DNA from: a virus
Lineage: Duplodnaviria; Caudoviricetes
Direction: 5' to 3' (one strand)
Virus record (IMG/VR): IMGVR_UViG_3300010944_000263
Span: 8,980-72,979 of that record
DNA length: 64,000 nucleotides
Under the pieces are notes generated by a model that saw only the letters and a list, made by a program, of their open reading frames with translations, did not search any database and was not told the origin of the DNA. Shown here piece after piece: positions 387 to 57,873 of the stretch (the first letter of the stretch is position 1; each line of letters opens with the position of its first letter). The translations under genes were made by a program, and so were the position numbers.

Positions 387-3154
387 TTCCTCACCCTGTA
401 TGGATTGCCTTCGTCGCTGTAATCGTTCACGGTAAAGCCGTAGGTATCTCGCACCTTTCGTTTGCTGTCGGGATGACCATACGGAATCATCTTGTACTTT
501 CTTCCAGCCACTTCGACTGAATCAGGAACTCGGAAATCGGTACCTTGCTGTTCCGCTATCTTCTTGGCGATGTACCACGCCTGCCCCCAAGTTCCTCCAA
601 TATGCCCAGCCTTGAAAAGTGCAATCAGCATTATCTCCTCGGAAGTCCGAAGTTTCTTCTCCGTCTTTACGTTCGACTTCTTAATCTCCCGAAGCTCACC
701 ACCAGTGAACTCTAACCCTTGCGACTTGCGCTCTCTAGCTGTCGGCTCATACCCGCATTGCCGGCACTTTCCGCCGCGATAGATAGCATTGCAATTCGGG
801 CAATTGATTGTCGCTCTTGGCTCATGCGTCTTTGCTGGTCGCTCTCCCCATTCGAGAGTCCACGCAATGTCATCGTCAAAGAATCCATGCTTGCTGATAT
901 TGGCGGCATGATCCAGCACAATGCAATCAGGAACATCGGGATGCACGCGGCTTCCTCGTCCGACCATCTGGCGATAACGAACAACGCTCCCGATTGCTGT
1001 ACACAACTGCACGCATCCCACACGAGGAATGTCGGTGCCTCGCTCGATAACGCCAACGTTGCAAATGTACTGAATCTCTCCGCTGTTCAATCGCTGAAAC
1101 AATGACTTTCGCTCTTCATCATCTGTCTCGCCATCGACATAGTGAGCATCAATTCCATTCTTGCGAAGAATCTCCATCGCCTCGTACGCATGGGATCGAC
1201 GCGGGAAGAACCCAACTGTAGCTCTTCCTTCCGCCAATCGCTTCCAATCCTTCACCAAATCGCCAGCGAGCCCGTCCATCGCTGCTGCCACACTGTCCTC
1301 GGTGTAGTCATCACCACGCTTTACAAGCAGGTTCAGCTTCCCCTGGGTCGCTTGGAAGTAACGGAACGGAGACAGATACCCATTCTCAATCAACCACGAC
1401 GGAGATGGACCCATCACAATCTTACTGAAGACCTTGTTCAACTCTCGGTGCTGCGGAGTAGCAGACAGCCCAAGAATAAAAGGCGGCTTCAATCCTAACT
1501 CGGCTCGCTTCTTGTTGTGCGCCACAAGGAATGTTCTGAACTTCGCAACGTGGCTATGGCAATTATGAACCAGAAGATTGTTTGCAAAAAAACAGTGGCT
1601 CTTTTCTACTTCTATGTCGAACACTTCCGTCTGGCTTGCGGGAACGATTTTCATCACACGACACCAACTTGTATCGCATACATTCTGGGACGTACTTCGA
1701 AATCCGACGACCAATCTCAAGTTGCGTCCAGCTTGCGATTCCGATGAAATATGCGTCCTTTGACCTGTTTTTGTAGACAGAAGCCTTTCCGATGTTGTCA
1801 CAAAACCAGTCTGCAATAACTTCGTTTTCCTTTTTAGAAAAACCTTCCGTGTGAAGAAGCAGCGATTTTTTTGTTGCTGATCCATCATCACATATCCACC
1901 ACGCGAGCCCAATATCCCCAATCGCATCGAGCCATTTTCTGGACACCACTTTTTTCCCTCGACGCTTAACCAGTTTTTCGATTTCAATAAGCGATTGATT
2001 GCATGAAGTGACAGTGACAACAGACTGCTCACCCCAGCCTTCGTTATCAACAACTTTGGTTTTTGCAGCCAATCTATGCAAGAATTTCGCTTTGTGAATT
2101 GCCCACTCTTTTTGAACAAGCCCATGAGTGCTGCTAAGTCTCGGAGATTTTGACCTGCTGTTTGGATATGTGATCGAAGAGTCCCCAAGCAATGTCCCAA
2201 GAATCGCCTGCCTTTCAAGAACAGTAAGCTGAAGCATTTGATTAGTGCTACAGTTTTCGTGTCCGTCGCAATACTGTTTGTATAAGGGCATCGCACCGTA
2301 TGCGATCCATGAGTCAGCTGTCTCAAATCCAAGTCTAGTCCTAACACCACAGCCGCATTTGCAAAAAGGAGCGGCTGCATTGAGTTCTCCCCAGAGCTTA
2401 ACAAAGTGCTCTTTTTTTCCGAGTGATTTATGCCCCCAACAAAACAGCTTTCCTGTTCTAGGCTTTCTTCCACACCCGCATAAGCAAGTATCTCGTCTGT
2501 AGGCAATACGTACTGCGCTTGTAGCCATCCTCGCCTCGTATAAAGCTCGTGATCTGGAGTGCATCGCACTTTTCCTGCGTGCGTATGTATCTCTAGTGTA
2601 GTTTTTGTCCCGCTATGCTTCCAGTTCAAAACACTAGCAAAATGAACTCCTTTTTCTTCGCTGTATGATCTCACTGTCTTAGGTTTTCGATACGGAACTT
2701 GATCTATTCTCATCGCTCCAAGTTCTGTCTCTATAATCGAATCCCCAGAAACGCATTCATCAAACACAAGAAAGTCGTAGGTGAAATCGTTTCGATACGT
2801 TCCTTTCTCAACGTACCAACTGTTCTTGGTATCGATTGAAGCCACTTGCAAATCGCATCCTGGCAACGTGTCAACTCCAGACATGATGACACCATGCGGC
2901 AATCGAGGGTGTTCATCGAACGACGCGCTGGCATTCTCGACGAGCCCGCGACGATGAACCATGAAAGCTGCCTTTCCGCTTTCACCATCTTTCTTTTCGC
3001 GATTCAAATACAAGCCAAGCATGTGCTTCGCACACCGAGTCTTGCCCGCACCTGGAGGCACACAAAAAATCACGCTTCGATACTTTGCTATCTCTCGCCT
3101 GATGTTTGCGACACATTCCTGCTGGTATGGACGAAGCGTAGGAATCTCAATCAT
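383..3154 (-). CDS. SF2 DEAD/DEAH-box helicase (RadD/YejH-like) with C-terminal Zn finger, interrupted by an intein in Walker B
   Basis: Walker A PPGAGKT; DE|CH motif reconstituted after removing the intein; LSATP motif III; RQMVGRGSR motif VI; CPNC..CRQC. Confidence 0.9.
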   Translation of the reverse strand: MIEIPTLRPYQQECVANIRREIAKYRSVIFCVPPGAGKTRCAKHMLGLYLNREKKDGESGKAAFMVHRRGLVENASASFDEHPRLPHGVIMSGVDTLPGCDLQVASIDTKNSWYVEKGTYRNDFTYDFLVFDECVSGDSIIETELGAMRIDQVPYRKPKTVRSYSEEKGVHFASVLNWKHSGTKTTLEIHTHAGKVRCTPDHELYTRRGWLQAQYVLPTDEILAYAGVEESLEQESCFVGGINHSEKKSTLLSSGENSMQPLLFANAAVVLGLDLDLRQLTHGSHTVRCPYTNSIATDTKTVALIKCFSLLFLKGRRFLGHCLGTLRSHIQTAGQNLRDLAALMGLFKKSGQFTKRNSCIDWLQKPKLLITKAGVSSLLSLSLHAINRLLKSKNWLSVEGKKWCPENGSMRLGILGSRGGYVMMDQQQKNRCFFTRKVFLKRKTKLLQTGFVTTSERLLSTKTGQRTHISSESQAGRNLRLVVGFRSTSQNVCDTSWCRVMKIVPASQTEVFDIEVEKSHCFFANNLLVHNCHSHVAKFRTFLVAHNKKRAELGLKPPFILGLSATPQHRELNKVFSKIVMGPSPSWLIENGYLSPFRYFQATQGKLNLLVKRGDDYTEDSVAAAMDGLAGDLVKDWKRLAEGRATVGFFPRRSHAYEAMEILRKNGIDAHYVDGETDDEERKSLFQRLNSGEIQYICNVGVIERGTDIPRVGCVQLCTAIGSVVRYRQMVGRGSRVHPDVPDCIVLDHAANISKHGFFDDDIAWTLEWGERPAKTHEPRATINCPNCNAIYRGGKCRQCGYEPTARERKSQGLEFTGGELREIKKSNVKTEKKLRTSEEIMLIALFKAGHIGGTWGQAWYIAKKIAEQQGTDFRVPDSVEVAGRKYKMIPYGHPDSKRKVRDTYGFTVNDYSDEGNPYRVRK
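1562..2755 (-). mobile_element. Intein (398 aa) in helicase DECH motif
   Basis: Block A CVSGDSII, block B TPDHELYTRRGW, block F VFDIEVE..HCFFAN, block G LLVHN followed by Cys+1. Confidence 0.92.
1563..2528 (-). CDS. LAGLIDADG homing endonuclease (321 aa) overprinted in the +2 frame of the helicase intein
   Basis: Motifs AILGTLLGDSSI and LAWWICDDGS, two CxCGCG..GH repeats at the N-terminus; ATG at 2528 preceded by GAGG (alternative ATG 2564). Confidence 0.85.
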   Translation of the reverse strand: MATSAVRIAYRRDTCLCGCGRKPRTGKLFCWGHKSLGKKEHFVKLWGELNAAAPFCKCGCGVRTRLGFETADSWIAYGAMPLYKQYCDGHENCSTNQMLQLTVLERQAILGTLLGDSSITYPNSRSKSPRLSSTHGLVQKEWAIHKAKFLHRLAAKTKVVDNEGWGEQSVVTVTSCNQSLIEIEKLVKRRGKKVVSRKWLDAIGDIGLAWWICDDGSATKKSLLLHTEGFSKKENEVIADWFCDNIGKASVYKNRSKDAYFIGIASWTQLEIGRRISKYVPECMRYKLVSCDENRSRKPDGSVRHRSRKEPLFFCKQSSGS

Positions 3155-5531: not shown

Positions 5532-6284
5532 TTAGAAACCTTTGCTCTTGATAGCCGCCGCTTGCTTCTTGTAAGCATCGCGAACAGCATCACCGACGTG
5601 CTTCGGCTCCTTCGCAAGAACGTTTCCTAGCTCCTCCAGCCTTTCCTTGGTTTCAGCTTGCTTGAGAATCTTGCCCCACATCTGGCAATAGAACGGCCAC
5701 ACCGCCTTCTGCACTGGTGGCGGCTCCTTTAGCAAGCTCTGCCCGAGTGGCGGAAGCATCCACGCATCATCGACCTGATTGATAGCGTCTACCCAGCTTT
5801 GCGAAGCTCCGTCTAGTTCGATATCTTCCGCCGCGGGAGCTGCACTCGTGGGCTTCGCGTTGATATTGTCCGCCTCGTTGTCTGGCTGACCGCGAAGGTG
5901 GAACGCCGAGAGATACGCCGACTTGAGAGCGTAACTGAATGCCTTCCCTGTTGCTTTATCCGAGGTGTCGAGTCCTTGCCCCCACCCCTTGATAGATGTT
6001 CGCTCTGTTGGATTATCAGCGTTTACCAACTCAATGGTAATAGCACACTCTGCTTGCCAAGCACCCTTCCCGCCAGTGAAGAATTCCAGCTTCCTGTCGT
6101 GAATCTCAGTCACCATGCAGACGACACCATGCTCGACTAGACACGCACGCAACTTGTCGTCAATGTCATCTATCTTGTGATACTGGTACTTATCACCGTA
6201 GTTGACCTGCCCGCCTTTACCGACTGCACCCATACGCTCCATCACTTTGACAATGCGCTGATACAGATTCAAATTTGAACTCAT
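5532..6284 (-). CDS. ERF-family single-strand annealing protein
   Basis: GWGQGLDTSDKATGKAFSYALKSAYLSAFHL matches the ERF signature; adjacent to exonuclease. Confidence 0.8.
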   Translation of the reverse strand: MSSNLNLYQRIVKVMERMGAVGKGGQVNYGDKYQYHKIDDIDDKLRACLVEHGVVCMVTEIHDRKLEFFTGGKGAWQAECAITIELVNADNPTERTSIKGWGQGLDTSDKATGKAFSYALKSAYLSAFHLRGQPDNEADNINAKPTSAAPAAEDIELDGASQSWVDAINQVDDAWMLPPLGQSLLKEPPPVQKAVWPFYCQMWGKILKQAETKERLEELGNVLAKEPKHVGDAVRDAYKKQAAAIKSKGF

Positions 6285-6310
6285 AACACTCTCTCCTAGA
6301 CAAACAGAAA

Positions 6311-7138
6311 CTAGAACTCAAGGCTAAGCGACATCGACTCGTACACCACGCGAGCCTGCTCGACACGCAAGCGAAGCGTATCAACGTATTCAGGATTAAA
6401 TCCGAACTCGAACACCTTGATACGCTGATGCTCGGGGATCTTGTGAGACACCAGGTGCATCGAATCAACCTTGGCGGACAACTCCTTGTAGTGAGGGTTG
6501 TCGTCATCGCAGTTGAAACGAAACCACAATCGCTTCTTCTCTTCTTCAACCAGCTCGAACGGAGTATCTACCAAGACGTGAGCCAAGCGGAACTTCCTTC
6601 GACCTGTCAAAGCCATGTACACTTGCCCCTGCGCGTAATAGAGCGGATCAGGGCGGCGCACCTCAACAAACGTGCGAAGCGTCCAAGAGCACTTAGCATC
6701 CTCAATCACGTCATCCAAAACAACGTCAGGCGTCCCGGTGAAATGCTCGTCCTCGAACCATTCGTCATTCTTCACTCGGAATCCACCATGAAGATGCCGA
6801 GTCATAATGCCAATGATTTCATCTTCGCACATGAGCCCCTTTAGAATCTCGTTACTTACGAGCGGCTCATCGTAACCAAACGTGTTTCGCATCCAGCAAT
6901 CGCGAATGTAAGACATTGCTGTAGCGCCGAACTCAAAATCGGCATCACGCTTGGCAATCAGCTCCTCCAGCTCTTGCTGCATATTGGCAGTCAAAGGCTT
7001 GGCATCTGAATTGTCCTTGCGAGCCTGTAACTCGTCGAGCCTCGCAAGCTGCTTATCCGTGATCGCATTTCCGCCAACAAGCAAGTTGCCGACAGATGAC
7101 GCACGGAACCTCACCGGCTGAACGCCAGATTCTTCCAT
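6311..7138 (-). CDS. YqaJ/lambda-exonuclease-like recombination nuclease
   Basis: RASS, G..CE, GTPD, EDAKC, YYAQGQVYM motifs. Confidence 0.8.
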   Translation of the reverse strand: MEESGVQPVRFRASSVGNLLVGGNAITDKQLARLDELQARKDNSDAKPLTANMQQELEELIAKRDADFEFGATAMSYIRDCWMRNTFGYDEPLVSNEILKGLMCEDEIIGIMTRHLHGGFRVKNDEWFEDEHFTGTPDVVLDDVIEDAKCSWTLRTFVEVRRPDPLYYAQGQVYMALTGRRKFRLAHVLVDTPFELVEEEKKRLWFRFNCDDDNPHYKELSAKVDSMHLVSHKIPEHQRIKVFEFGFNPEYVDTLRLRVEQARVVYESMSLSLEF

Positions 7139-8790: not shown

Positions 8791-9469
8791 CTGTCACCTC
8801 CTTTAAGATCGCTTTCAAGTCATCAACCGACTTTGGCGCTGAAAACACACGGTAGCTGTTCGCGTCCTGACTTAAGATCAGCGACGGCAATTCCTTGGTA
8901 ACAGACAAAAACGGCTTGGCTGCCTCAAGCTCATCGTCATAGGCAGCGATTTTAATACCGCGAGACTCCAGCATTTTGCGAGTTTCGATAGACAATCGAG
9001 TATTCGTTTGCGGAATCTGATTGATCGCATCGCCCTGCTCGTAAATCCAGACAGCCCACGCCGGCTTGAACTTCGGGTCAGGCTTTGGAGTAGGGGACGG
9101 CTTTGGTTCAGGCTTGGGAGGCTGAGGATCTGGACGAGGATTGACCTCGCCCTCAGAAACAACCTTTAGCAACGTCGATTCACCAGCCGTGATGAGATAA
9201 TCACCAGGAGGAGCCGCGAAAATGGTGTACGAATCAAATCGCTCGAAGTGATCTTCAGATAGATACGTCCACGATACCGAGCCAGCCACCACGTTAGCGT
9301 AGATCGCTTGAACCTTCGCGCCAGCCGGATGATTGATTTTCACTGGACGATCGCGCTTGGCAATCGCCGGAGCCTCCACTTTGTAATGCACCGGCTTGTC
9401 TTGCGAGATTCCGTTGATACCGGAACACAAAGCAAGGCACATCACCAAAACGTAAGAAAGGTTGTTCAT
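8783..9469 (-). CDS. Secreted protein with signal peptide and Pro-rich linker
   Basis: Hydrophobic N-terminus, PDPQPPKPEPKPSPTPKPDP linker, globular C-terminal domain. Confidence 0.6.
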   Translation of the reverse strand: MNNLSYVLVMCLALCSGINGISQDKPVHYKVEAPAIAKRDRPVKINHPAGAKVQAIYANVVAGSVSWTYLSEDHFERFDSYTIFAAPPGDYLITAGESTLLKVVSEGEVNPRPDPQPPKPEPKPSPTPKPDPKFKPAWAVWIYEQGDAINQIPQTNTRLSIETRKMLESRGIKIAAYDDELEAAKPFLSVTKELPSLILSQDANSYRVFSAPKSVDDLKAILKEVTGE

Positions 9470-10001: not shown

Positions 10002-13000
10002 CTACCTTGAAAACACCTTGCGAAGTTGCTGCAGCCGATCGCTCAAAGCGGCCTTGTACACCGGAACACCGCCACGCATCTCTTTAGCCGATCCGTAGGT
10101 AGACTCCCAGTGCTTAATCAACAATCGCCTTGCTTCCGTCAACGTTATCCCTGACCGCTTGAGTGATTCAATCGCTGCTTTTTGCTCACTGACCGACTGA
10201 TTGAAAGACTCAACAGACTTAGCGGCCTTGCGATTCGGAACGGTTGAAGCTGCATAAACCAAGCTCTGCTGCTTTTCTTCTCGACGCCGACTGATCTGAG
10301 TGAGCTGCTCCCGAGTCAGATACTCTTTGTACTGAGGATCTGGAGAATCGAACTTCATCCGCTTAAGATCCTTTTCAAACAACTCCTTTCGCTTTTCTGG
10401 AGTCGCTGTGCGATACTTCGACTCAGGTCCATAGGTGCTAGCGCCCATACCATGCAGAGATAGTAGAGTAATTAGCGCGCCCTGCGGTATCCCTCTCGAT
10501 TCTGCCGTCTCTCTGATTTCCCTGATGGACAGCGGGAAGAACAAATTCACTATCGAAGAGTAAGGCGTCATTGTCTGACCAACTACATTTTCCTCTGCTG
10601 CAATGTCGAACACAGCACCAGGTATAGGCGCCAACTTAGATCGCAAGAAATTACCAACAACCCCAGGAACTCCAGAACTGGCATACTGCTCATCTTCTCC
10701 TCGCAACGAAACCACCGTGCCATCATCTCTAACTCGCTTCCCTGTTGCGATGCGGCTCGCTAGAACGATGACTTGCGACAATCCAGACATCGGGTCGATT
10801 CGCGTCTCACCAAACTTGAGCTTCAAGAGGTCGCTCGACCGAAGGTCCAGGCTAACTGTAGGCTTTTCTTCTTCGTCGTCGCCGCCTAGCAATCTGCCAA
10901 GAGCAACAGTTAGCCCCAAGAACGACATGACGCCAGCAGCGTGCCGAGCATATTCAAGTGCAATCGCCTTCTTGACGCGACCAGACACCTTTCGACTTCC
11001 GAGCAACCACAAAGGCAACCCGAGGTACTGAAAGCGAGACGCTACGAATCGAGGGGCGAAGAACACCATATTCATCTGCTCTGCCCATCTCATCATCGGG
11101 CCAAGGTCCGATCGCCCTGTCGCCGCATTGATGTACATAGCGATTACTTTTGCCTCGTCGGCCGTAACTTGACCACCACGACCAAGGTTAGCAATCAAGT
11201 GCTTGAACAACTGGAAGCGGATTCCATTCAGAAACGTCATGTAGCCACGAGCCGAAGCCGCAACAGGCCACAATGCGATTTTACTTTTGTCGTTAAGCCA
11301 TGTTCCCTGCGCGCCGATTCCATCTCTAGCCCATCGTCCCATGTACGCTTCTTCCTGCTTGGTAATCTTCCCTTCCTCTTCCGTGATTTGCAGGCCGGCG
11401 GTAATTGCAAACTGATACAAATCGTCTTTTCGAATCTCTTCCGCCGTCTTGAACTCCGAAGATTTGCTCAGCATGGCTCGGTACATATCCTTCGCGACCG
11501 CTTTAGCCATCATCGGATGCCCAAACGCAACCGTACCGCCTTGACGGAACACAGCAGACGCGTCGATAGACGTCATCAGCGCCCGAGACAGGTGAGCCGT
11601 TTCTTTGATGTAGTCCCAAGCTCTTTCCCGAGGGCTCATGTTAGCCAATCGATAGTCAGAAGCCATTCGATAGAACTGATCTTTCACGTCAGCTAGCTCT
11701 CGCTTGAGATCTAATTCCTCTTGGCTTAATATTCGAACTTCTTTCCGTGGCTTTGGATCGAACTCGCTCTTAGCTATTCTCTCTTTGTAGTCTGCAATCT
11801 GCTTGAGTAAGTTCGCTTTGTACGCTTTTTCAATCTGTTCAGGTGTACGTTTTCGAACACCAACCAACGAATCACGCTGAGCACGCAGAGCCTCAATGCG
11901 AGCTCTCTTAGCATCCAGTTCAGGAGTGGAAATTGGCTGAGCCTGCTTCTTGGCGTTGAACTCGCCTGTTCGCAACTGCTTTTCGAGGTCGGCAATTACC
12001 CTATCGAGAACACGATTAGTCGCCGCGATACGCTGATCCATCGTCGCTTCTGGCTTGGGGAACATTGCCTTGTAATCAGCCATCAGCTCATTTCTCTTTT
12101 TACGGAGATTGTCTAGCTCAGTGTCTTTGCCTGCCAAATCACGCTTTTGGCTTCCAGCAATAGGCTGCTTAGTAACGTTGACAGCCCTATCCAAGTCGTA
12201 GATTCTGTTTCGAAGAGCTGTCTTTGCTGCTCCAATAGCGGTCTTTAACTGCGTGTTTTCATCAGTAACTCGATACTTTCCGTTTCGCTTTTCTTGATTG
12301 ACTTCTCGAATCAAATCTCGCAATTCATTACTTGGCTCCTGCCTTCCGAAGCCTGTCTTGGCTGGAGCAATACCCGCTTCCATGTCTTGCAACTTGGATA
12401 GCTGGAGCAACTGCGCATTGATGTCCGCAATAATCTTGTCGTACTCGTTGTCTGATGGAGGAGAGTATTGCCCATAACCGCTCAAAGCGTCCATCGTCTC
12501 ACGCTTCGAAATCTCGGGATCAATCTCCTGTAGAGACTCCCAAACACCTTGCAGCACATCATCACGCTCGGTAATGCCCGCCTCGACAAGGGAACGCTCA
12601 ATCTGCTTGGCAAGCCGCGACAAGCCTCTTGTATCGCCTTTATCCATCGCAGGAACAGGAATATCACCGTTCTCGCTCAACTCCTTCCAAGCCGTTGCAA
12701 ACGCGGCACGAACCGAGACAGGAAGTTCTGCACCGAGATCCTTGCGGATGTTTGCCAAGAACTCACCTAGCGAGAATACACCGAGGTCGACGTACGCCTG
12801 AACGACTGACTTGGCTTCGCTAGCCATCATCTCATCTTCCGTCGCGTATAGAGAGCCAGTGTCGTCGGCTGAACTCAACGCAAAGACAGATGCAAACTTG
12901 TTCTTGAACGACGTGAGCTTATCGACCGCCTTCTTGCGGATCGCTTCTGGAATCCGTCCGCCTTTCTTTTTGCTGTCCTCAATCTGAGCGTCAACGTTCC

Positions 13001-16000
13001 TTTGTCGCTCAAGGTCCAACTTCTCTTGGTTTGCTTTGGCAAGATCGCCTTCAAGCTCAGCCACCCTCGCAGCCAGTTCGCGAATCTTTGCCAACTGCTC
13101 TTCGTTCAACGCATTGCCAGCGTTTGCTACACGAGCCTTGCGAATCAAAGCAACCGAAGAGAAATCTTTAGCTAGCTCAATCTGACGAGCTACCCCAGCA
13201 CGGCCCCATTCTCGACCAGCAGCCTTTGCAGCCTCCTCGATCTCAGCAAGAGCGTTCTGAATAATGTCCGTGTCTGTTAGCGCCTGAGCAGAAGCCAACG
13301 AGTCACCATTGTCCTTTGCTTTGATGAGCCTATCCGAAGCCTTGATAAGCTGGTTAGTTACTTGGCGGTAATGCAGCTGCATGACAGCAACTTCGATATT
13401 GCTCAAGTTGCGAGCCTTCTGATTGATCTCTTTTACAAGGCGATCGCCAAGCATCGGATCATTACGGAGCATCGTTTCCGCAGCTTCCAGCCACTCTTCT
13501 TGCGTCTCCGAAGCGACGTCCACTAAGCCTGGGACACCTCGCCGGAACCGAAGCTCATTGACAACTTCGTTCTTGATACTGGTAACGAAGTCATCATTTT
13601 TTGACAGGCTGTCAGCACTTTCGATATCGCCACTTCGCTGCACCAATTTGTCAAAAAGGGCACGCACTTCGCTTGGCAATGGACCGCCAGTGATTTGCTG
13701 AATGTTTCGGTAAACACCCTGCATCCAGCGAGCAATCTTCTGGAACAATCCTTTCAGTCCGCTGCTAGGAGGATCGATTCCTTCGAACCAGTACTGCTCC
13801 CACATCTTGGCGAACTTCTCTTCGTTCTCAACCTTCCAGACGCCGTTCTCGACGCCAATCTCCTTCTCCAGTGCGATGATTTCGGAATCCGTAATTCCAG
13901 CCCGTTCGCTTTGAGGAACCCTGCGATTGAGCAGGAATCGACGCAACGGGTGGGCAATCTCATGGATGAACGTGGACACGTCCGCTTTGTCCGTTGCACC
14001 GATGATGGCTCTGGTCGCACTGATAAACGATGTCCAACCCTTGATGTAGTCGCCTCCCCCTTGGAGAGCCATTTCCTCCAGCTTCTTCGGAACAGGCGAA
14101 CCGAACGGAGCAAAACCAACCTTGTCGAACGAAAGACCAACACGCTCCATGATGTCGAGCGCCGCGTTAATCTGCTCATCGGACAGGCTAGAACTCGGGA
14201 ACGCTGCCCTAGCCATCGAAAAGACTTGTTCTCGAGTTACGCCGGGAGTACCCAGGACATCGCTTGTGCTGCGAACGCCTGCGAATCCGGCAATCTGAGC
14301 CACCAGCCGCAAATAGGGTCCAATTTCGCGTGTACGACGTTCTCCGAGCGACTTGACCGAATACGCGACCAGTTTGTCGAACGAGTTTATGTTGGCGTCC
14401 ATCGCAGCCATGGCGATATCGATAGCCTGCTTCTCGATAGTCGAGTCAACGTCACCCGATTCCATCTGAGCAAGGTCGGCCGGAAGATCGCTCAACTTGT
14501 TTCCAAGGTCAGGGTTTTTATGGAAGCTACGAAGTTCTTCTAGGTTTTTGAATATTGGCTCGCCTTGTTCATCGAGCACCTTATCAGCTCGAACGGCTAC
14601 CGTATCAACACCGTCTTCATACAAAACGTGCGTGTCAGACCTATACCCGGAAACAGCGTGCTCTTCCAATTCGAACTTGGCACCATCTGAAGACTCTTCG
14701 CCGGTTACTCTTTCTCGATAGAGCTCTGCTTGCATATCCGCCATAGCTTGCGGAACTGCAGGTCGCTTTCTCTTTTTGACGAAAATAGACGTTCCAATTG
14801 GAGCAATATTTCGGAACCAAAAAGAAGAACCTTCAGGATTAGACTCCAGTTCCGCAACCAACGCTTTTAGCTTAGCTACTTTCGCGTCTAGTTGTTGCTG
14901 CCTTACGAACGGAAGTTTCGCTGACTCATCCGCAGATTTAACAAAAGACTCCTTTTTAGCTTTTTCAGCTTTGCGAGCATCAATTCTCTTTCCAACGTTT
15001 CGCAACACACCATCCATACTAGCAAACGACGGATTGATTTCGAGAAGCATCTTTTCAGCGTGCAACTGACCACCGCTTATGAAAATGCTTACGCCTCTAT
15101 ACTCAGCAACCTTTCGCTTGTCAGACGCTTTTACGCGATCCTCGGTCGATTGCGTACGTCCATATCTCTCGACAATCATCTCCAGAGCGTCCGTAATAGC
15201 CTCAGCCCCAGAGATGTTCTTATCAGCAACCTTTATCAAGTCGCTCAACACCATCGTAGGCTCAACGGACTTGCCTGACTCTGATTTTTGAGGACGTGAA
15301 TCCTGGTATGCCTTCTGAATTGCAGACAGATCATCAATCTCTCTTGTAAGACGAGGAATGTCTCCTGTCTTTTGCTTATGCGCCTCCCAAAGAGAATCTT
15401 GAATTGTTCGGTAGTGCCTGTCCTTGGCTTCCTTTAACTTGACGATTTCTCTTTCGAGACGGAATCGCTGCTGAATACGAGGATCTCCTACCGCAGCCGA
15501 AAACGTCGCTTCAAAATCTCCTTCGCCTTCTTCATCCATATCGACATCACTCATGTCGATAATTCGCTCGTCTCCTTTATGGTGCATGAATCGATTGATA
15601 AACCGATCCTTTGTCAAAAGAACCTGCCATCGTCGACCGTCCTGCGGTCCTTCTGTCAGATACCGATGCTCGTGAACAGTGTTCCATCTGTTTCCTTGCC
15701 GGAATCCTCGACCGTTTCTTTGCTCAAGAGCTCCTGGCATCCAAGGAGCATCTAAATGGTGCATGGCAACAAGATTCTCCTGCGCATTGACACCAGTACC
15801 TAACGTCTCCGTTCCGCCAATCGCGAAACGGATTTCACCCCTGTTCATTGCACGAGCTGCTTCCGCTCTCTGCTCTTTATTCATGTTTGAGAACAAGGCA
15901 ATTTCACTTTCAGGAACACCTTCTTCCATCAGACGACGCTTAATCTCCTTACCCAAGTTGAAAATCTTGACGTTTTCAGTGATAGGCTTTCCATCGTTGT

Positions 16001-19000
16001 CTCTTCCAACAACCCGCTTTGCAGAATCTTTATGCCCCATCTCCATGAATATCATCTGCGTGGCTTTAGGATGCGAATAGTAGTAATCCATCGCATTCAC
16101 AAGCATCTTGTTGATCTTCAACCTTGGATCGCGAGGATCCACAAGACTAGCATCTACCCCATCCATCAAGCGAGGATCAAGAGCCAGCTTCACGCCTTCG
16201 CTATTGAGAACCAAAGGCATGTACTCTCTTGTTCGAAGAAGCTCAAACTTCGCTTTGCCTGTTGCTTGCTTAAGCGTCCTGTACCGCTCCTTTAAGTTTT
16301 CGCTCATCAGCTTTTGAATCGGCATCATCTGCAGCGTTTCGTTATGCACTTCCTTGTATGGACGACCGACAACAGGCTCTCCCTCTTCAATTCTTCCATC
16401 TTTTGTTGGTCGCGGAACAAACTCCGGCATGTCGCTCCCGAAAACCGTATCCATGTACTGTCCGATAGATGCTCGCAATTCCGGAAGGTTTACAAAGCTA
16501 GTTAGGCGCACAAACTCTTCGTACGTTCCGCCAACAGACAGTTCGTCGCTCGTTTCCGCAGTAGCAAACGTGTTGAACCATCCATCCCAATCCTTTACTC
16601 CAACTGCTTGCATTTCATCAGGCATGATGAATCGCTGCATGTTATAGATTTCATTCAAAGTGTTTGTGACTGGAGTTCCGGTAAACAAAAACACTCCCCG
16701 TCCATTTTGCGTCCCGCGAATGTAGTCAGACAGAAGCATTAGTGAATTGCCAATGTTACTCGACTGCTTATTCAGCCCCTTTACTTGCTGACGAGTAGCA
16801 ATAGGAATTTTTTTGAAAATATGCGCCTCGTCGACCATGAGCATATCAACACCCATGTCTTCAATGAAAATAGTAGATTCGCTAGCGGAATCCGCCTGAG
16901 CTTCTCGAATGCGCTCTCGCAAACGGAGGCGTTCCTTAACAAGCTCTTTCGCGGTTCTTTGCTTGAGCTTCTTCAAATCGTCGTCGTCTATGTTGTCTAA
17001 GTTCTCTGGCATACTGCCTTTGAACGGACTGTCGTCTTCATTGAAAGCCTCAAGCGCTGCAGCTTCCAATTGATCCATTTGCTCTTGAAGAAGCTTTTCA
17101 AGCGTCTCAGGGCGCATCTTCAGCTTATCAACAAGCGAGTGTGGAATCACAATCAAATCCCAATCCTCGGTAGCGATAGAAGCCATTGCCTGACCTTTAT
17201 TCTTCGAGTCGAGATTGTCAACATAAAGAATCTTGGCTCCAGGATAGGCTTCCTGTGCTTCTCTATACACCGCTTGCGAGTTTGCATTATGCGCAAACAA
17301 CACAGGCTTGTTGGCTAAGCGAAGCCGGCGAGACTCTATTGCCAAGGCTGCCATAGTAAGCGTCTTGCCTGTACCGACCTCGTGCGCGTACAGCCCTTTC
17401 CCTGAAACAATTCCACGCCAAACAGCCGCTTCTTGGTGCTTTCGAAGCGAAAAAGGATCTTCTCCCCTCTGTAACGCAAGACCTTCAAACAGCAAAGGAA
17501 CCTTTACTTTGTTCCAATCTGGAGTTGCCACAGATCGGTGATCTTCGTTGTACGCTTGAGACAGCCTTGCAATTCGGTCGGGAGTTTGCCAAATCCAATC
17601 CTTGAACTTGTCTTTCAATTCGTCAATCTTGGCGTTAGCTTCAAACGTCGCCTCTTCGTCCTTGACGTTGTTTCCTTCTGCATCTTTATAGAAAACGGAA
17701 ACACGACCGTTATTCATTGCCGCAGAAACCATCTTCGAAAACGGAACTTCCATGTGTCCGTGAGTCACAACTGCTGGAGAATTGTTTACCGATCCAGCGA
17801 AGTCTACCTTCCACCCTCGAATAGCCTTTAGCACTCTGGTGTTTTTCGGATCCTCTCCCAATAGGTCAGCAACAAACTGCGTGTAATCCTCCGCTGGAAT
17901 CCAGGGAGCGCCCATGCTTACTTGAATTTGGTTGTAAACAAGAGGCTCTGGCATGACAGATTTTGCCGCTTCGATAGATCGCTCGAGCCCATTCACGCCT
18001 TCGTTCTTCGCAGCTTCGAGCTGACGAATCTTTCTTGCCATATTCCCTGAGAGGAATACATCCGCAGCGTCATATAGGTCTTCGCCAGTCTTGTAGATCA
18101 ACCCTTCTTTCTCAAGAACAGCAATCACGTCAGCTTTCGGCATCTGCGCAGACTTCGCAACAGCATCCCAGTCAATATCCACGGAGTTGTTACGAGCCAA
18201 TGCGAAAGCATCGATAGGGTTCAGTTTTTCGTTTACGCGAGGTGGCTGACGAACAGTCGTCTTGGTAAAAACAGGACGCTTCTCGTACTCTCCGTTCGCT
18301 GTTTTCATCTCCAAAGACGCTACCGCGTTAGCTATCGCATCGCCAGAAGCCTTGAGATAACCGATAGCCTTACTTTCGGTAATTGGACCGTATTTGCCTA
18401 TGAACGCATCGTAAAACTGATTGAGCTGCTTTCGCTGCTCAGCCGCATCCTCACCCCTGCCCTGCAATTCAAGCACTTGCTCAAGAGAGTCGCGAACTTT
18501 AAGAAGCGAAACCATCTCGTCACGAATCTTTTTGACAGTCTCTGGCTTGCTCCCAGCGCGGTACCAATTGACGTACTCTTTGAGAGGCATCAACTGCTCG
18601 CCCTTGGCAATGTACAGTTCATCACCCTGATGAATAACTGTGTTCTGCCGAAGTTTCTTTTCGTTTGCTCTCTCTCTTCCTTCGTTCGCTGTCCTTTCAG
18701 TATTCAAAATGTTTTCAGGGACTGACTCGATCGCTTTCTGCCATCTTTCAGCCAAGTCAGAAGGCTTGTCGACAATCATGCCAGGACGACCACTCGTTGT
18801 GCCGTTACCATAGTTGATCGTCCCCAATACGTTTTCTGGGTGCAGCTTCCAGTAGTTATTCACATCTACCTTTTGCCCAGACGGTGTATCCATCTCGATA
18901 ACATCAATCCACTCCTGATTAACAGAAGATGGACTCTCTCCATCTTTTCGCTTACGAATGATAATCAAGTCCGCAACAACCTTCGTCTTGGCATATCGTT

Positions 19001-29415: not shown

Positions 29416-29518
29416 CAAGTTGCACCCACCCTAACTACATGCTCAAATAAAGCGAGCCGTTTGGAACATGGTACTTCCAAACGGCCCTAACCACCATGGA
29501 CCTAAGAAGGAGGCTCAA

Positions 29519-30364
29519 ATGGCTAAAAACGATTCTACAGCAGCTCGTCCCCGCGTCAAAGACATCTCTGGACAGCAATTTCACGACCTGACCGCAATTA
29601 GCTATGCCGGCACAAACCTCGGAAGCCAAGCAGGAGCATACTGGACATTTCGATGCGTATGCGGAACTGAAAAAATACTGAACGGTCGTGCTGTACGATC
29701 TGGGTCTACCAAATCGTGCGGCTGCAGCAAGCATCGCACAAATGAAGTCGGAAACACTTACTTCAAGCTGACGGTCATCGAGTTCGCTGGCAAATCTAAA
29801 GGCGGAGACTCTCGTTGGCTTTGCAGGTGCGAGTGCGGAAACACAACCGTCGTTGACAGGGCAGCATTTCGAAAAGGAAGCATAAAGTCTTGCGGATGCC
29901 ACAGAGCCCGAGCAGGAGGTAGATGCGAAACTTCCGAGTACACTTCCTGGAAGGAAATGAAAAGACGATGCGACCCAGACTACAAAGACAAGCACCTGTA
30001 CGCCGAAAGAGGAATCACGATTTGCGAAAAATGGGCTAACAGCTTCAACGCTTTTTTTGAAGACATAGGACCAAAACCATTTCCAGAAGCCACAGTAGAT
30101 CGAATCAATAACGACCTCGGATACTTTCCCGAAAACTGCCGATGGGCGACAAAGCTCGAGCAAAGCCAAAACACTCGCAAAGCACGCATGTTGACGTTCA
30201 ATGGCGAAACTCTTTGTTTGCGAGAATGGGCAAGACGACTTGGAATTACGCACGCAACTCTGGCAAGTCGCATCAATAAAGGATGGGAACCGGAGAAGAT
30301 ATTTTCTAGCGAACACTATTTCTCTCCTCCTCCTAGAAAAACCAAGAAGAATAAGCAGGACTAA
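29519..30364 (+). CDS. Free-standing HNH homing endonuclease, antisense to the late operon
   Basis: Two W.CRC.CG...SCGC domains, WKEMKRRC, RGITIC, TVDRINNDLGYFPENCRWAT, C-terminal HTH; AGGAGG SD. Confidence 0.85.
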   Translation: MAKNDSTAARPRVKDISGQQFHDLTAISYAGTNLGSQAGAYWTFRCVCGTEKILNGRAVRSGSTKSCGCSKHRTNEVGNTYFKLTVIEFAGKSKGGDSRWLCRCECGNTTVVDRAAFRKGSIKSCGCHRARAGGRCETSEYTSWKEMKRRCDPDYKDKHLYAERGITICEKWANSFNAFFEDIGPKPFPEATVDRINNDLGYFPENCRWATKLEQSQNTRKARMLTFNGETLCLREWARRLGITHATLASRINKGWEPEKIFSSEHYFSPPPRKTKKNKQD

Positions 30365-32355: not shown

Positions 32356-32371
32356 GGCTTACCTACTTTCC

Positions 32372-48099: not shown

Positions 48100-48951
48100 C
48101 TAGAGCATTTGAGCGCCAGCAATCCAATCCACCTTCAAGTTCAAAGCGGCGTTGCCAGCGATGTCCTTGATACCGATGATCGGAGCCAAGAGAACGTCAT
48201 CAGGGAACGTCGCTGCATCGATCTCCGAAGAGGTCAAGCGAGCCGGGGCTGCACCAGTACCAGCCAAGACGCCGTTGACGTACCACTCAACCATCTTCGG
48301 AACGGCTCGGTATCGGAAGCCGAGCTTGACGTAGGTATCGGCAACCATCGTCGCCAATGCGTTCAGCTTCGTCTTTGTCGCACCGTCTTGGTACGTTTGA
48401 CCATCAGCCTTGTAAGCACCGTCTACCGCGGCTCCTTCGGCTTGCAAGTGAACGAACCCAAGAAAGTTCTTGTCAGCCAACGCGCCAGTGGTGTCAACGA
48501 ACAATCCGTCCGTCGCTCCCATGCTGACTTCGCCAAGACCAACGCCCCAAGACCACTTGGCGGCAGTGATTGCACTAACGCTGATGCGAGTCTCGAACAC
48601 GAGGTCACGGTTGGCAAGCAAGAACGGAGCTCCAAGCCCTCTCCCCCACTGCAAAACAGCTTCGTCGTTGGCGGCGTTTCCGTCGACAGCCAACTGAACC
48701 AAACCTTTTTCGGTCGTGGTGTCAGCAATCTGCTCGATGGTGCAACCAGTGCCTTCGAGAATCCGATATGGACCTTCGAGAGAAGACGCCTGAAACGAGT
48801 GAAAGTTGTCGTAAAACCCGAAACAAGGATTCCCAGACTGCGAAATCGTCGTCGTCCCAAGAGGACCAAACGAAGTTGGAGGAGCGAACCCTTTCCACAA
48901 CTTCCCGCCAGAAGGAAGGTAGCCGATGCTCAATTCATCAAAAGTAATCAT
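48100..48951 (-). CDS. Putative capsid decoration/structural protein (283 aa)
   Basis: Beta-sandwich-like protein immediately after the capsid gene. Confidence 0.55.
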   Translation of the reverse strand: MITFDELSIGYLPSGGKLWKGFAPPTSFGPLGTTTISQSGNPCFGFYDNFHSFQASSLEGPYRILEGTGCTIEQIADTTTEKGLVQLAVDGNAANDEAVLQWGRGLGAPFLLANRDLVFETRISVSAITAAKWSWGVGLGEVSMGATDGLFVDTTGALADKNFLGFVHLQAEGAAVDGAYKADGQTYQDGATKTKLNALATMVADTYVKLGFRYRAVPKMVEWYVNGVLAGTGAAPARLTSSEIDAATFPDDVLLAPIIGIKDIAGNAALNLKVDWIAGAQML

Positions 48952-49017
48952 TGTGTTTTCCCTTTCAAGGAAGATGTGGGATTGTCTCAGCTTTGGGTGA
49001 GCGTTGTCCCATTATAA

Positions 49018-49104: not shown

Positions 49105-50223
49105 TTACGCGGATTCTTCAACGGTTTGCGTGCAGTAACCACGGAAGTTACCGCGACGATTGAAGCAAACCATCTGCACCGAGTCATCCATGCAGCGAAC
49201 GCGAACGTTGCTCATTTCTGGGTGCTGGAACGCCTTTCGCTTACGCATCTGACGACCAGCAGCGTAGTAAGCCTTAAACGTCGCCCAGTTCACACCGAGG
49301 ATAATCCCGTCCGTTCGAGCATTGACGCTCGAGGAGTTCGTCCAAGCTGGCACCCACGTCATTGGAACACCGCGGACGAAGACCGTTCCGCTGTGCGCCG
49401 CCATATCGTCACCAATGTTGTCATTGCCGAGCTGCAGCAATCGACGACTGGACGAAAGAACGCTGTGAGTGGTCAGCAATTCCCAGTCATGCCGCTTTTG
49501 GTCAACGATGTCTGGTCGCTGAACAGGCGGAATGAAGTGGCAAAGGTCCATCGACTTGATGACCTTCTCGACAAAATCGTTTCGGTCAACGCTGGTGTAC
49601 GGGAACGTACGGTTTCGCCATTGCGGGTAATCCGTACAAGAGATTCCACCAACACCATTGTTCGCCCAACCAACTGGCTCCATGCCGTTGAATCCCTCCA
49701 AAGCGTTATTTTCAGAAACGCTATCGCTGGTCGATGTGATCCACCAGAGAAGAGACGCAACAGTGAAAGGAGACTGAGTAGGACCAGTAGGACCAGGACC
49801 AAACACCAAATCTTCCATCCCGGTATAGAACGAGGTAATCAAATCCCGCTCCATGTCTTCGATGTAGTCGTAAATCTGACGACCACCCGTTCGGAAGATT
49901 TCTTCGTCAATGTCGTAGTGGTAGTTGTTGGTGGTCAAAGCCCACTTCAACTCGCCTTCATCCAGCGTGTTCACGCGGGTAGAAGAATCTCGGTGGTAGA
50001 GACCAACCGTTTGGAAGTTGTCGTTGGTATTGACTTTGACTTTCCACTTGCACTGCGACGTGCTCATGGTGTCCTTCTTGAGATTCCCCGAGAAGAGACG
50101 CGATGCGTACTTGTACTCTTGCAACGGCAAGGACAAGTCCTGCGCTGCAAGCTGTTCTTCGCCAGCAAACTTCTGATGAATGCTGTTTACAAAATCGTCA
50201 ATTTGCTCAATCGATAGAGCCAT
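49105..50223 (-). CDS. Major capsid protein
   Basis: 372 aa after portal and scaffold; GGI.....PQWRN and FRGVPMTW-type HK97-fold phage capsid patterns. Confidence 0.75.
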   Translation of the reverse strand: MALSIEQIDDFVNSIHQKFAGEEQLAAQDLSLPLQEYKYASRLFSGNLKKDTMSTSQCKWKVKVNTNDNFQTVGLYHRDSSTRVNTLDEGELKWALTTNNYHYDIDEEIFRTGGRQIYDYIEDMERDLITSFYTGMEDLVFGPGPTGPTQSPFTVASLLWWITSTSDSVSENNALEGFNGMEPVGWANNGVGGISCTDYPQWRNRTFPYTSVDRNDFVEKVIKSMDLCHFIPPVQRPDIVDQKRHDWELLTTHSVLSSSRRLLQLGNDNIGDDMAAHSGTVFVRGVPMTWVPAWTNSSSVNARTDGIILGVNWATFKAYYAAGRQMRKRKAFQHPEMSNVRVRCMDDSVQMVCFNRRGNFRGYCTQTVEESA

Positions 50224-55065: not shown

Positions 55066-57873
55066 TTATCGTCGCAGAACATCCTTAATTCCATATCTAG
55101 GACTTCCTGGATTTGATACACGACGATCTTGCTGCTCGCGCCATAAAAACGAGCCATACTCTGGATTTTTGCCTTTTTCATCACCACTGTCAACTTTCTC
55201 GCCTGAATTGTCCGTCGAGTAGACCAGCCAAGCACCTGCCGCGGCAATTGCCCTATCACCGTGGTTCTTGTCCGTAGCACCCTTGTTTTTAGTAGGTGCG
55301 TGAACAATCTTAGACCCTTCCCATTCGTACTCTCCGCACTCAACTAGCATATCGGCCGATCTCGGAATGTACTTTCCCTGCTCCATGGCTAACGCGAATT
55401 GCTCGAACATGTCCGCCTTATCCGCATCGCGACACGGGAACCCAGGCTTACGACTCTTCTTCTGCGATCCAAGCTGCGTCACGTTTCGATAAAAGATGTT
55501 TCCGTAGTACAAAACCTCCATGACCTCCTTCGCGAAACCACTCGATACACCTGAGTCTTCCCATCCAAGTTTCGCTTTACGCATCCAAAGACACAAGCCA
55601 ACGACGATCCTTGCGAACGGACGAGGCTCTAGCCCTTTAATCGTATACTCGAGAACTTGCTCGCCTGTTCTATCGTCGATACCAGACGCAATCGAGTTCG
55701 ATGCGTACGCTCCTGTTCCTCCAGATGCGATATCGCACGCAATCGTAAACGGACCAAGCGGAGGGCTGTCATCAATCCCTGGCTTAAACCAAAGCACAAG
55801 AGGACCATCTTCGCGTTCAATCAAACCTTTTAGTTCTAACGTCTCGCTATCAAAGACAGGTGTTCCTTTCCACACTGGATTCTTCGAATGCGTCTTCTTC
55901 ATGCGGTCGAGCAAATCGGAAGTGAACACCTTCCCAACAGCTCCTTTCGGATTCCTATCTAGCTGAGACGCAATCAACTGAGGACGAGCTGTCTTTCGCA
56001 AACATCGCATGTCGTACCATGGCGACCGCACAACGCCTTCGTACTTAAAACCTTTCTTCTCGAGCAAATCACGCAAATCAGGTTTGCTTCGATGATACTC
56101 TGCAACCGCTTCCGCATCTTCAGGCTTGATAGCAACAGGCTTGTTGTCTGTTACGATGTACGAATGCTTCGAGTGAACGGGATGATCTTTCCAATCGAGG
56201 ACAAGATGCCATCCGCCCTCATCTCCCTTCGCTTCACATGCTTCGTGAAAAACGCCCTGGTCAATATACCTCGCTGAAACAAGCCTCAAGCACCCAGTCA
56301 CATCGTGTAGCGATTCCATTACGGCGTAGTCTTTTCCACCAGACACAAAGTCTTTCGCGCCGGCTTCGTCCATCGTGAACACTGTCGCTCTACCACCAGC
56401 AGCAACGTCTTGCCCTGCCGAGTAACCTTTGAGCAACGAACCATTGTCTTTGTTCTCGAACGTGTGCTGGCTCAAGTTTCGCTCATAGTTCGGCTGCATC
56501 CAAGCTGGAAGCATGTTGATTGCAAACTGCACCTTCCAAAGAACAGTGTCTGAGTCCGTCTTGCTATCAACGAGGTCCGCGTTACGTGTCACATATCCAG
56601 CCGAGAACATCTTGTCGCAAAGCCATCTTCGCAAATCAACCCACAGATATCCAAACGTACCTCCCTGAGCTCGAGCCTTGTCCACCAGAACGTCCAACGT
56701 CTTCTCGTTCTTCGACGTGTAATCAATCGCTTCATCGAGAGCTCGAAACACCTTCTCTTGATGCGGATACGGAATAAACGGAACCACTTTGAACTTCGCC
56801 CGCGGATCGTACCCGTAGCAATTATGAACTATCAACGGCTTGTCGTTTGCGTCTAAAACAGTAAAGCACTGCCTTGGGCCGCAATTCAAGAGGTCGTATA
56901 CCTCCGAGACCTGTTCGCTGGCATCAAAATTTCGACCGGAGAAAATCCATTCTTTATTCGATACGAAACTGCTGGGTGAGTTAGTCCAGTACGATTCATA
57001 ATTTCGTAAATCGTCATAGGACCTTCTGATGTTTCGTACTTTTTCATCGTTCGCTGCCGTTGGTTTTTCATTTGCTCCGACCATGTTGCCCATCGGCAAT
57101 TGCTTGGTTCGTAATTTCCGTCGTTGTTTATTCGGTCCAAAGTCTTGTCGTCTGGCGGATCTCCCATGTCTGCATAAAAATTCTCGAACTTCATCCATCT
57201 TTTGCAAACAGTGATTCCTCGACCTCCGTAGTCTTTCCATCTTGAATTTCTGGGGTTGAAGCATCTCTGCATCATGTGCGACCATCTGCTGAAAACAGAA
57301 CTTTTGCTTTTCCCGTGAACAATCTTTGATGTTGCTGACTTGCAACCGCAACTTGTGCTTTTTCCTCCTCGAAGATTGTCCCCAGAAACTGTCAACTCTT
57401 TCCCGCACCTGCACTGGCAAAGCCACGCTGCTCTTGTTGTGTTTCTGTAATTTCCATTTCTTTGAATAACCTTCAGGTAACCGAACACTTGCCCGGTCAT
57501 GTCTTTCAATTGCTTGCTTCCAGCCATTTTTTGTCCAAATCTTGTGGTCAGGAGTAACATCTATTTCATAGGCAAATATACTTCGCTTACGACCTTTATA
57601 AACAGATCCTCCTTGTGAAACCCAATCGTTTCCGTCCCAAACTAAATCAAGTTCTGTAACTTCTTCAATTGGGACAGGACCACGATCAGTTACAACTCGA
57701 GTCCCTTTTCCAATACATGCTGCCGCCATGAAGAAACAAACGTCATCCATACACGCTTGCCAAAACGCATTTCGAAACTTGATGTCTGTCAACGCACGCT
57801 CTCGGCATCGAATTCGCCACTTCAAGTTTTCTATAGGATCCTTCGGAACCAAATCGTAGTACAAACCGCTCAT
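55066..57873 (-). CDS. terL: Terminase large subunit with intein
   Basis: PFIPYPHQ, VDKARAQGGT (Walker A variant), TMDEA (Walker B), IACDIASG and HGDRAIA nuclease motifs. Confidence 0.88.
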   Translation of the reverse strand: MSGLYYDLVPKDPIENLKWRIRCRERALTDIKFRNAFWQACMDDVCFFMAAACIGKGTRVVTDRGPVPIEEVTELDLVWDGNDWVSQGGSVYKGRKRSIFAYEIDVTPDHKIWTKNGWKQAIERHDRASVRLPEGYSKKWKLQKHNKSSVALPVQVRERVDSFWGQSSRRKKHKLRLQVSNIKDCSREKQKFCFQQMVAHDAEMLQPQKFKMERLRRSRNHCLQKMDEVREFLCRHGRSARRQDFGPNKQRRKLRTKQLPMGNMVGANEKPTAANDEKVRNIRRSYDDLRNYESYWTNSPSSFVSNKEWIFSGRNFDASEQVSEVYDLLNCGPRQCFTVLDANDKPLIVHNCYGYDPRAKFKVVPFIPYPHQEKVFRALDEAIDYTSKNEKTLDVLVDKARAQGGTFGYLWVDLRRWLCDKMFSAGYVTRNADLVDSKTDSDTVLWKVQFAINMLPAWMQPNYERNLSQHTFENKDNGSLLKGYSAGQDVAAGGRATVFTMDEAGAKDFVSGGKDYAVMESLHDVTGCLRLVSARYIDQGVFHEACEAKGDEGGWHLVLDWKDHPVHSKHSYIVTDNKPVAIKPEDAEAVAEYHRSKPDLRDLLEKKGFKYEGVVRSPWYDMRCLRKTARPQLIASQLDRNPKGAVGKVFTSDLLDRMKKTHSKNPVWKGTPVFDSETLELKGLIEREDGPLVLWFKPGIDDSPPLGPFTIACDIASGGTGAYASNSIASGIDDRTGEQVLEYTIKGLEPRPFARIVVGLCLWMRKAKLGWEDSGVSSGFAKEVMEVLYYGNIFYRNVTQLGSQKKSRKPGFPCRDADKADMFEQFALAMEQGKYIPRSADMLVECGEYEWEGSKIVHAPTKNKGATDKNHGDRAIAAAGAWLVYSTDNSGEKVDSGDEKGKNPEYGSFLWREQQDRRVSNPGSPRYGIKDVLRR
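56821..57717 (-). mobile_element. Intein (299 aa) in terminase
   Basis: Block A CIGKGTRVVT, block B TPDHKIWTKNGW, block F VYDLLNCG..CFTV, block G IVHN then Cys+1. Confidence 0.92.
56886..57527 (-). CDS. HNH homing endonuclease (213 aa) overprinted in the +1 frame of the terminase intein
   Basis: WLCQCRCG..SCGC, WSHMMQRC, YGGRGITVC, TLDRINNDGNYEPSNCRWAT, C-terminal HTH. Confidence 0.88.
   Translation of the reverse strand: MAGSKQLKDMTGQVFGYLKVIQRNGNYRNTTRAAWLCQCRCGKELTVSGDNLRGGKSTSCGCKSATSKIVHGKSKSSVFSRWSHMMQRCFNPRNSRWKDYGGRGITVCKRWMKFENFYADMGDPPDDKTLDRINNDGNYEPSNCRWATWSEQMKNQRQRTMKKYETSEGPMTIYEIMNRTGLTHPAVSYRIKNGFSPVEILMPANRSRRYTTS

Follow-up and report, generated by a model that had tools for sequence, protein, structure and literature searches.

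Inteins whose endonuclease is read in a different frame from the splicing domain have been described in bacteria and phages. In the cyanobacterial DnaX intein, a LAGLIDADG open reading frame (ORF) lies in the +2 frame (bioRxiv 10.64898/2026.09.14.751524; Gorbalenya 1998 as cited there), and inteins of actinobacteriophages contain an endonuclease VII-like ORF in frame 3 or a LAGLIDADG or Vsr-like nuclease in antisense (bioRxiv 10.1101/2025.01.02.630785). Related arrangements include fractured genes, in which an endonuclease gene stands free between the two parts of a split intein (Dassa et al. 2009, PMC2677866) and shares its last 6 to 69 bp with the downstream part (PMC2677866), and the methylase inserts of ShiLan-type phages, which hide an out-of-frame HNH ORF while the host frame stays free of stops (PMC11855218). 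This HNH ORF starts a few codons into the insert and stops at its very end (PMC11855218). Here, two inteins with nested nuclease genes are analyzed, one in a superfamily 2 (SF2) DNA helicase gene and the other in a large terminase (TerL-like) gene of a Caudoviricetes phage. Both lie in a stretch of 64,000 nucleotides (the window; positions 8,980 to 72,979 of IMG/VR record IMGVR_UViG_3300010944_000263) of a 72,979-bp phage genome that consists of one contig, and nearly all genes of the window are on the minus strand. The two are very probably independent, mobile, non-canonical inteins, each with a mini-intein-like Hint domain whose linker is overprinted, on the same strand, by a nuclease gene of the free-standing type.

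Host Genes and Intein Splicing Domains

The helicase gene (383–3154, minus strand; 923 codons) encodes a RadD/ResIII-type protein with an intein within motif II. Its ORF matches the Pfam families ResIII, Helicase_C, and Intein_splicing as well as phrog_16 (DNA helicase, 1.7e-67). The extein junctions read DE/C...HN/CH, where a slash marks the splice site, and splicing would yield DECH. The intein itself (1562–2755, minus strand; 398 codons), in the frame of the host gene (frame 0), runs from Cys1 through the block B motif TPDH, a Gly-Trp pair (GW), an N4-like stretch, and a motif-less linker of ~285 codons to blocks F and G and the terminal VHN/C. It scores 45.8 bits against Pfam PF14890 (cut-off 35.8), and the NCBIfam models TIGR01445 and TIGR01443 are also matched above their cut-offs.

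The TerL gene (55066–57963, minus strand; 965 codons) carries its intein 82 codons from the start, with the junctions ...FFMAAA/C...HN/CYGYDPR.... Its C-extein matches annotated phage TerL genes (tblastn), and the majority of 488 TerL homologs are ~635–645 aa long, without an insert. No match for either host gene was obtained by megablast against phages. The TerL intein (56821–57717, minus strand, frame 0; 299 codons) comprises Cys1, TPDH, GW, a motif-less linker of ~205 codons, a block F of sequence VYDLLNCGP, and the terminal IVHN/C, and its homologs include the inteins in the polymerases of APSE-1, GB2A, SFCi1, and AB1. In an AlphaFold2 (AF2) model based on 34 homologs, residues 1–88 and 268–299 form beta-rich lobes with a predicted local distance difference test (pLDDT) score >92, and linker residues 90–265 are disordered (pLDDT ~45). 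Every top match of this model in a Foldseek search of the PDB was an intein (probability 1.00, best E 1.3e-3). The hallmarks of class 1 inteins (Cys1, TPDH, and VHN/C) are present in both the helicase and the TerL intein, and the intact catalytic residues, together with the essential nature of the host genes, suggest that both can splice autocatalytically.

Nested Endonuclease Genes

Matches to Pfam and PHROG nuclease families are confined to an alternative frame of each unit, with none in the frame-0 linker. The gene nested in the helicase intein (P0002; 1563–2528, minus strand, +2 frame) encodes an I-SceI-like LAGLIDADG_2 endonuclease of 321 aa, counted from the ATG on the GW codons, which matches Pfam LAGLIDADG_2 (PF03161) at 2e-24 and 86.8 bits (cut-off 25). 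Two CxCGCG...GH repeats occupy its N-terminus. The LAGLIDADG motifs ILGTLLGDSS and GLAWWICDDGS are conserved, with G-D of motif 1 and A-W-W and D-D-G of motif 2 invariant in 9 homologs, and a profile of these 9 homologs finds I-WcaI (6x1j; 6e-12) and I-SceI (2e-7) in the PDB.

The gene nested in the TerL intein (P0004; 56886–57527, minus strand, +1 frame) encodes an HNH-like protein, related in type to PacI and I-HmuI, of 213 aa from the ATG on Asn-Gly (N-G) codons. It consists of an N-terminal zinc-ribbon/beta domain and a C-terminal helix-turn-helix (HTH) domain, matches phrog_374 ('HNH endonuclease', 1.3e-63), and is 38% identical to P46 of APSE-1.

Dual Coding and Selection

That these are dual-frame units of intein and endonuclease, as the preliminary description had proposed, is borne out by the openness of the frames, a recoding test, codon-position variability, and the identity to relatives in each frame. 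Stops in the linker number 0, 22, and 0 in frames 0, +1, and +2 of the helicase unit and 0, 0, and 14 in those of the TerL unit, and the same pattern of two open frames and a closed third one is seen in five homologs from cultured phages. In the recoding test, the codons of the nuclease were replaced by synonymous ones sampled according to the codon usage of the phage, and frame 0 was scored for openness. Frame 0 stayed open in about 1e-4 of the recodings of the helicase unit and in none of 20,000 recodings of the TerL unit (p <5e-5; Poisson estimate ~1e-7). Over the same DNA, identity to relatives is 46–81% in the nuclease frame and 24–49% in the frame-0 linker, with 53–83% in the splicing lobes. 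Moreover, third positions of the nuclease frame are the most variable across the nuclease core of both units. The pattern of constraint passes from frame 0 to the nuclease frame ~13 codons past the nested start and reverts downstream of PECMRYKL, the conserved end of the nuclease. As natural examples of dual coding, the window units are clean ones, with constraint changing frame over the space of a few codons. Both frames of both units are thus maintained by selection, which is purifying in the nuclease frame. Because the nuclease core fills the linker completely, the 5' leader and 3' tail of the nuclease gene are overprinted on the splicing lobes.

These data also bear on whether the nested ORFs could be decaying relics of in-frame intein endonucleases, or such endonucleases thrown out of frame by assembly errors. 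In favor of such an origin, canonical inteins of RecA-like, TerL, SNF2, and ligase-like genes do contain members of the LAGLIDADG family in-frame. However, an identical offset recurs in >70 independent contigs and cultured phages, the nested ORFs are intact and of full length, frame 0 has stayed open although this is most improbable by chance, and the nuclease frame is under purifying selection, which together make a relic or an artefact extremely improbable.

Mobility and Distribution

The distribution of the unit is sporadic and mobile. An intein-less TerL allele that is 99% identical (P0035) has the uninterrupted site ...FFMAAV/CYGYDPR; this nearest public protein, of 595 aa, was called from an internal Met, and its intein site is empty. 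Among the best 120 of the 488 TerL homologs, 28 carry inserts of ~290–960 aa. In four of these homologs that were fetched (L126–L129), the unit occupies sites other than that of the window, and all four nested genes start at W+2 (start positions are counted in codons from the Trp of GW, W, or from the block B His, H). Across IMG/VR, the unit with a +1 HNH-like gene is found in PolA, at several polymerase sites, in TerL, and in other genes. With 156 relatives in IMG/VR, inteins with a +1 HNH-like gene are common rather than rare. The TerL family as such is a hotspot for inteins, and two of the inserts among the best 120 homologs have an in-frame LAGLIDADG_3 domain.

Start and Stop Codons of the Nested Genes

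The preliminary description had placed both nested starts within xGW codons of the inteins and both stops within conserved codons of blocks F and G, and every codon that it named was confirmed on the minus strand. In the helicase intein, the codons ACG AGG CGA GGA TGG (T-R-R-G-W) supply an ATG at 2528–2526, made of the A of GGA and the TG of TGG, in frame +2. In the TerL intein, ACA AAA AAT GGC TGG (T-K-N-G-W) supplies an ATG at 57527–57525, made of the AT of AAT and the G of GGC, in frame +1. The GW pair lies 8 residues past the block B His, at the border of blocks B and N4 and outside TxxH proper. The +2 ORF of the helicase unit ends with TAA (1565–1563) within CAT AAT (His-Asn), and the +1 ORF of the TerL unit with TGA (56888–56886) within TTG AAT (Leu-Asn of block F). 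Both inteins terminate in GTT CAT AAT / TGC, an agreement that is uninformative because VHN/C is the ordinary terminus of an intein. Likewise, when His is encoded by CAT, a TAA is forced in the +2 frame at His-Asn, and this stop is therefore an automatic backstop.

The xGW ATG is not the sole candidate start, above all in the TerL unit. A further in-frame ATG lies at 2564 in the helicase unit, 12 codons upstream, and two lie at 57560 (11 codons upstream) and 57500 (9 codons downstream) in the TerL unit. In the window helicase unit and several of its relatives, GAGG precedes the GW start by 5 nt. In the subfamily of the TerL unit (window, L008, and L087), all members retain the N-G ATG as well as a second one 9 codons farther downstream, with no convincing Shine-Dalgarno sequence.

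Whether these positions reflect a general design was assessed by surveys of both nuclease lineages. For the LAGLIDADG (+2) lineage, 14 units were compared: that of the window, FoX3, seven metagenomic helicases, and five IMG/VR or GTDB loci. A locus search with the helicase-intein alignment found FoX3 alone in IMG/VR and none in GTDB genomes; the other relatives were found through a protein database with contig look-ups, and through the nuclease alignment. The nested start falls on the Gly-Trp codons in all 14 units, as ATG within GGA TGG in 13 of them and as GTG within GGG TGG in FoX3. A nuclease-frame stop 2–9 codons upstream makes the GW codon the first possible start in three units (L090, L092, and L093). 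As a control, the Gly codon at the same position was tabulated in HNH-type inteins, which have no need of a GGA-derived ATG, and is GGA in 12 of 29. A start fixed on the invariant Trp codon, which supplies the TG, is thus a conserved trait of this lineage. Stops vary: their distance upstream of the terminal Asn is 1 (four units), 6, 15, 19, 25, 28, or 33 codons. Separately, two distant LAGLIDADG relatives from IMG/VR (L109 and L110) were seen in the +1 frame of open ORFs of ~1,160 codons, where they may form an additional unit of the out-of-frame type, within a different host gene.

It could be hypothesized that the GW start acts as an adaptive lock, two of the three bases of the start codon being immutable without harm to the splicing of an essential host protein. 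We consider this idea rather doubtful. If it held, expression of the nuclease would be unusually resistant to mutational loss, and the decay phase of the homing cycle would be slowed; and if GW anchoring recurred in unrelated lineages, for example in dnaX, it would amount to a general rule for the expression stability of selfish overprinted genes.

The HNH (+1) lineage was surveyed by searching IMG/VR with an alignment of five frame-0 inteins, which gave 156 relatives. The 80 loci kept from these contain 62 unique nested units, 61 of them in the +1 frame and 53 with an open frame 0 and an identifiable HN end. The start was taken as an ATG or GTG backed by a Shine-Dalgarno sequence where there was one, as in most units, and as an ATG otherwise. 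Likely starts range from 9 codons before the block B His to 10 after the Trp. The largest class (20 units) starts at H-9, with AGGAGG at 9 nt, and forms a subfamily without GW; 13 units start at W+2, where GWK(N/S/D/Y)A is read as xAT G or xGT G, six at W-3, five at W+8, and the remaining ones elsewhere. Only 3 of the 62 units have an ATG or GTG that begins in the xGW codons. The starts are supplied by variable residues (N, D, Y, or S before A or G) and not by conserved motif codons, and the stops are spread between 23 codons ahead of the terminal Asn and 32 codons past it.

The broader proposal of the preliminary description was that conserved splicing-motif codons are a general source of start and stop signals, in which case dual-frame units would have arisen by convergence, each with the same boundaries. 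Both window units do have an xGW ATG and a stop in blocks F/G, GGA TGG is more frequent at the LAGLIDADG start than GGA is in the control inteins, and 4 of the 14 LAGLIDADG units stop at the TAA of CAT AAT. Against it, the main start classes of the HNH lineage lie outside xGW, and this scatter is what the preliminary description had named as grounds for abandoning a shared design. Conserved-motif starts therefore stand for the LAGLIDADG lineage and fail for the HNH lineage, and conserved-motif stops fall away in both, since stops are scattered from 33 codons before to 32 beyond the terminal Asn across the lineages. Units of one lineage agree because they share a common ancestor, which leaves only two independent data points. 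Both ends of the nested ORFs of the window run into the splicing lobes; the published actinophage ORFs, in contrast, are said to fall mostly outside the splicing domain (bioRxiv 10.1101/2025.01.02.630785), which also speaks against a general rule. A shared design is accordingly unlikely, and the xGW/stop regularity in the HNH lineage is largely coincidence.

The preferred explanation lies in the geometry of two independently overprinted inteins. Because the nuclease core fills the linker, the initiation signals and the first downstream stop must fall in DNA that encodes the splicing lobes. It is from this geometry, and from shared ancestry within each lineage, that the starts come to lie close to GW and the stops within or past blocks F/G; the stops are simply the first ones after the nuclease core.

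Proposed Mechanism

Translation of the host mRNA in frame 0 would give a precursor with a disordered linker of ~205 or ~285 residues, unconstrained in sequence, and intein splicing would then restore the DECH box of the helicase or TerL. Other ribosomes would initiate within this mRNA, at a start codon close to the 3' end of the sequence for the N-terminal splicing lobe, and produce the endonuclease as a separate protein. This endonuclease would cut intein-less alleles in co-infecting relatives, and repair would copy the whole unit into them (homing). It is plausible, as the preliminary description had suggested, that nuclease expression is decoupled from translation of the host protein.

Several observations weigh against this interpretation, mostly on the side of the TerL unit. 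Its intein gives no match to the Pfam intein models. Its nuclease matches none of the Pfam or NCBIfam HNH models, and although it is modeled by AF2 with a pLDDT of 88.8, the closest structure, PacI (3m7k), is found at a Z-score of only 6.1 over 79 residues. The family profile gives weak matches only, to I-HmuI (E 0.13) and PacI (E 0.26); Foldseek with the model of the HNH-like protein gave no match below E 0.3, and phmmer against the PDB gave none. In an alignment of 36 family members, R132, Y139, and N143 are invariant and N155 nearly so, corresponding to a motif DRIxN...N, and there is no invariant His. Nuclease activity of this family is suggested by annotation and by weak fold similarity. 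More generally, splicing, internal initiation, and homing are predicted here for both units from sequence-based evidence. Finally, none of the candidate starts of the TerL unit (57560, 57527, and 57500) is preceded by a Shine-Dalgarno sequence, which is present for ~55% of the large ORFs of this phage.

The last point could favor programmed ribosomal frameshifting, through which the nuclease would be fused to the N-terminal intein lobe instead of being initiated internally, and an A-run (ACA AAA AAT G) does stand just before the frame switch of the TerL unit. However, A AAA AAT favors a -1 slip, which leads to the +2 frame, and the nuclease is in +1, so that the direction is wrong. Homologs keep an ATG or GTG with GAGG, GGAGG, or AGGAGG at 5–10 nt; several units have a nuclease-frame stop 2–9 codons upstream of the start; and RNA folding near both starts reveals no structure beyond that of shuffled sequences (z -0.76 and +0.94). 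Frameshifting is thus considered very unlikely, and internal initiation is retained in the proposed mechanism.

Paralogs and Other Open Reading Frames

A free-standing paralog of the TerL-intein nuclease lies at 29468–30364 and is the only clear plus-strand gene in the window. Its product (298 aa) is 35% identical and has a duplicated N-terminal zinc-ribbon repeat. A third HNH-like paralog, apparently also free-standing, lies outside the window at 6062–6811 of the genome (window coordinates ~ -2917 to -2168; minus strand), and its 249-aa product is 37% identical to P0004. Recent derivation of the TerL-intein nuclease from the phage's own paralogs was considered and rejected, as they are 35–37% identical to it and no closer than P46 of APSE-1.

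The exact antisense frame of the 29468–30364 paralog is open for 314 codons (29435–30379, minus strand) and reads like junk. Other long antisense shadow ORFs were noted at 48109–49017, 49126–50217, and 32225–33409, and such shadows are probably an effect of codon usage. Just upstream of TerL, an ORF of 98 aa (58163–58459, minus strand) combines an N-terminal part that matches the zinc-ribbon/beta domain of the HNH-like nucleases with a tail similar to their C-terminal HTH, without a nuclease core. Its product may be what is left of a nuclease in decay, or else a homing endonuclease may have given rise to a small terminase or another DNA-binding protein. A single ORF of 5,011 codons (10002–25037, minus strand) takes up one fifth of the genome.

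Comparison with Known Systems

The preliminary description had regarded the pair as the best candidate in the window for an undescribed system. Out-of-frame and antisense intein endonucleases have been published, and the APSE-1 pair P45/P46 is annotated, so the architecture is already known and the window units are no new kind of system. In common with the published non-canonical inteins, they have a splicing domain and extein in one frame, a disordered, motif-less linker, a complete endonuclease in an overlapping frame under purifying selection, and a sporadic distribution. The helicase unit can be likened to the dnaX unit in both offset (+2) and nuclease type (I-WcaI-like LAGLIDADG). The host genes differ, being the DECH box of an SF2 helicase and the TerL family of the window, and the PacI-like HNH-type nuclease in the +1 frame of the TerL unit was not found described in the dnaX and actinophage papers. 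Placement of the start relative to the splicing blocks is not discussed in these papers or in PMC11855218, and the one detail that merits follow-up is that, in the LAGLIDADG lineage, the start is tied to the invariant Trp codon.

The closest relatives of the TerL unit are P45 (DNA polymerase with intein) and P46 (HNH endonuclease) of APSE-1, with counterparts in Caulobacter phages GB2A, RW, RLK, and KcrB, Shewanella phage SFCi1, and Gardnerella phage vB_Gva_AB1. Their inteins are ~30% identical to the TerL intein in frame 0, and their +1 nucleases 37–38% identical. Four of five of these cultured-phage units have their stop within block F, as does the TerL unit. They differ from it in their host gene, a family A DNA polymerase and not TerL, and in their starts, which lie at W+2 (ATG or GTG), W-3, or H-9, compared with the candidate ATG on the N-G codons of the window unit. 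Among the homologous cultured-phage units examined, the nested nuclease is annotated only in APSE-1, where the annotation is truncated, and is unannotated in four. Gene callers hide such units, and even the near-identical TerL was called as a protein of 595 aa.

Compared with fractured genes, the window units share a nuclease gene of the free-standing type between two intein lobes, and Pectobacterium phage Abuela and E. coli phage AN_ECEAS each have a split helicase gene whose two halves flank a free-standing relative of the LAGLIDADG nuclease. However, the host frame of the window units is continuous through both inteins, so that splicing would occur in cis, which separates them from fractured genes. 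The nucleases of the latter are also of other families, GIY-YIG and Vsr-like (PMC2677866). The ShiLan insert has no splicing domain, whereas the window units have complete Hint lobes. Altogether, fractured genes, out-of-frame units such as those described here, and canonical inteins form a continuum, as others have proposed.

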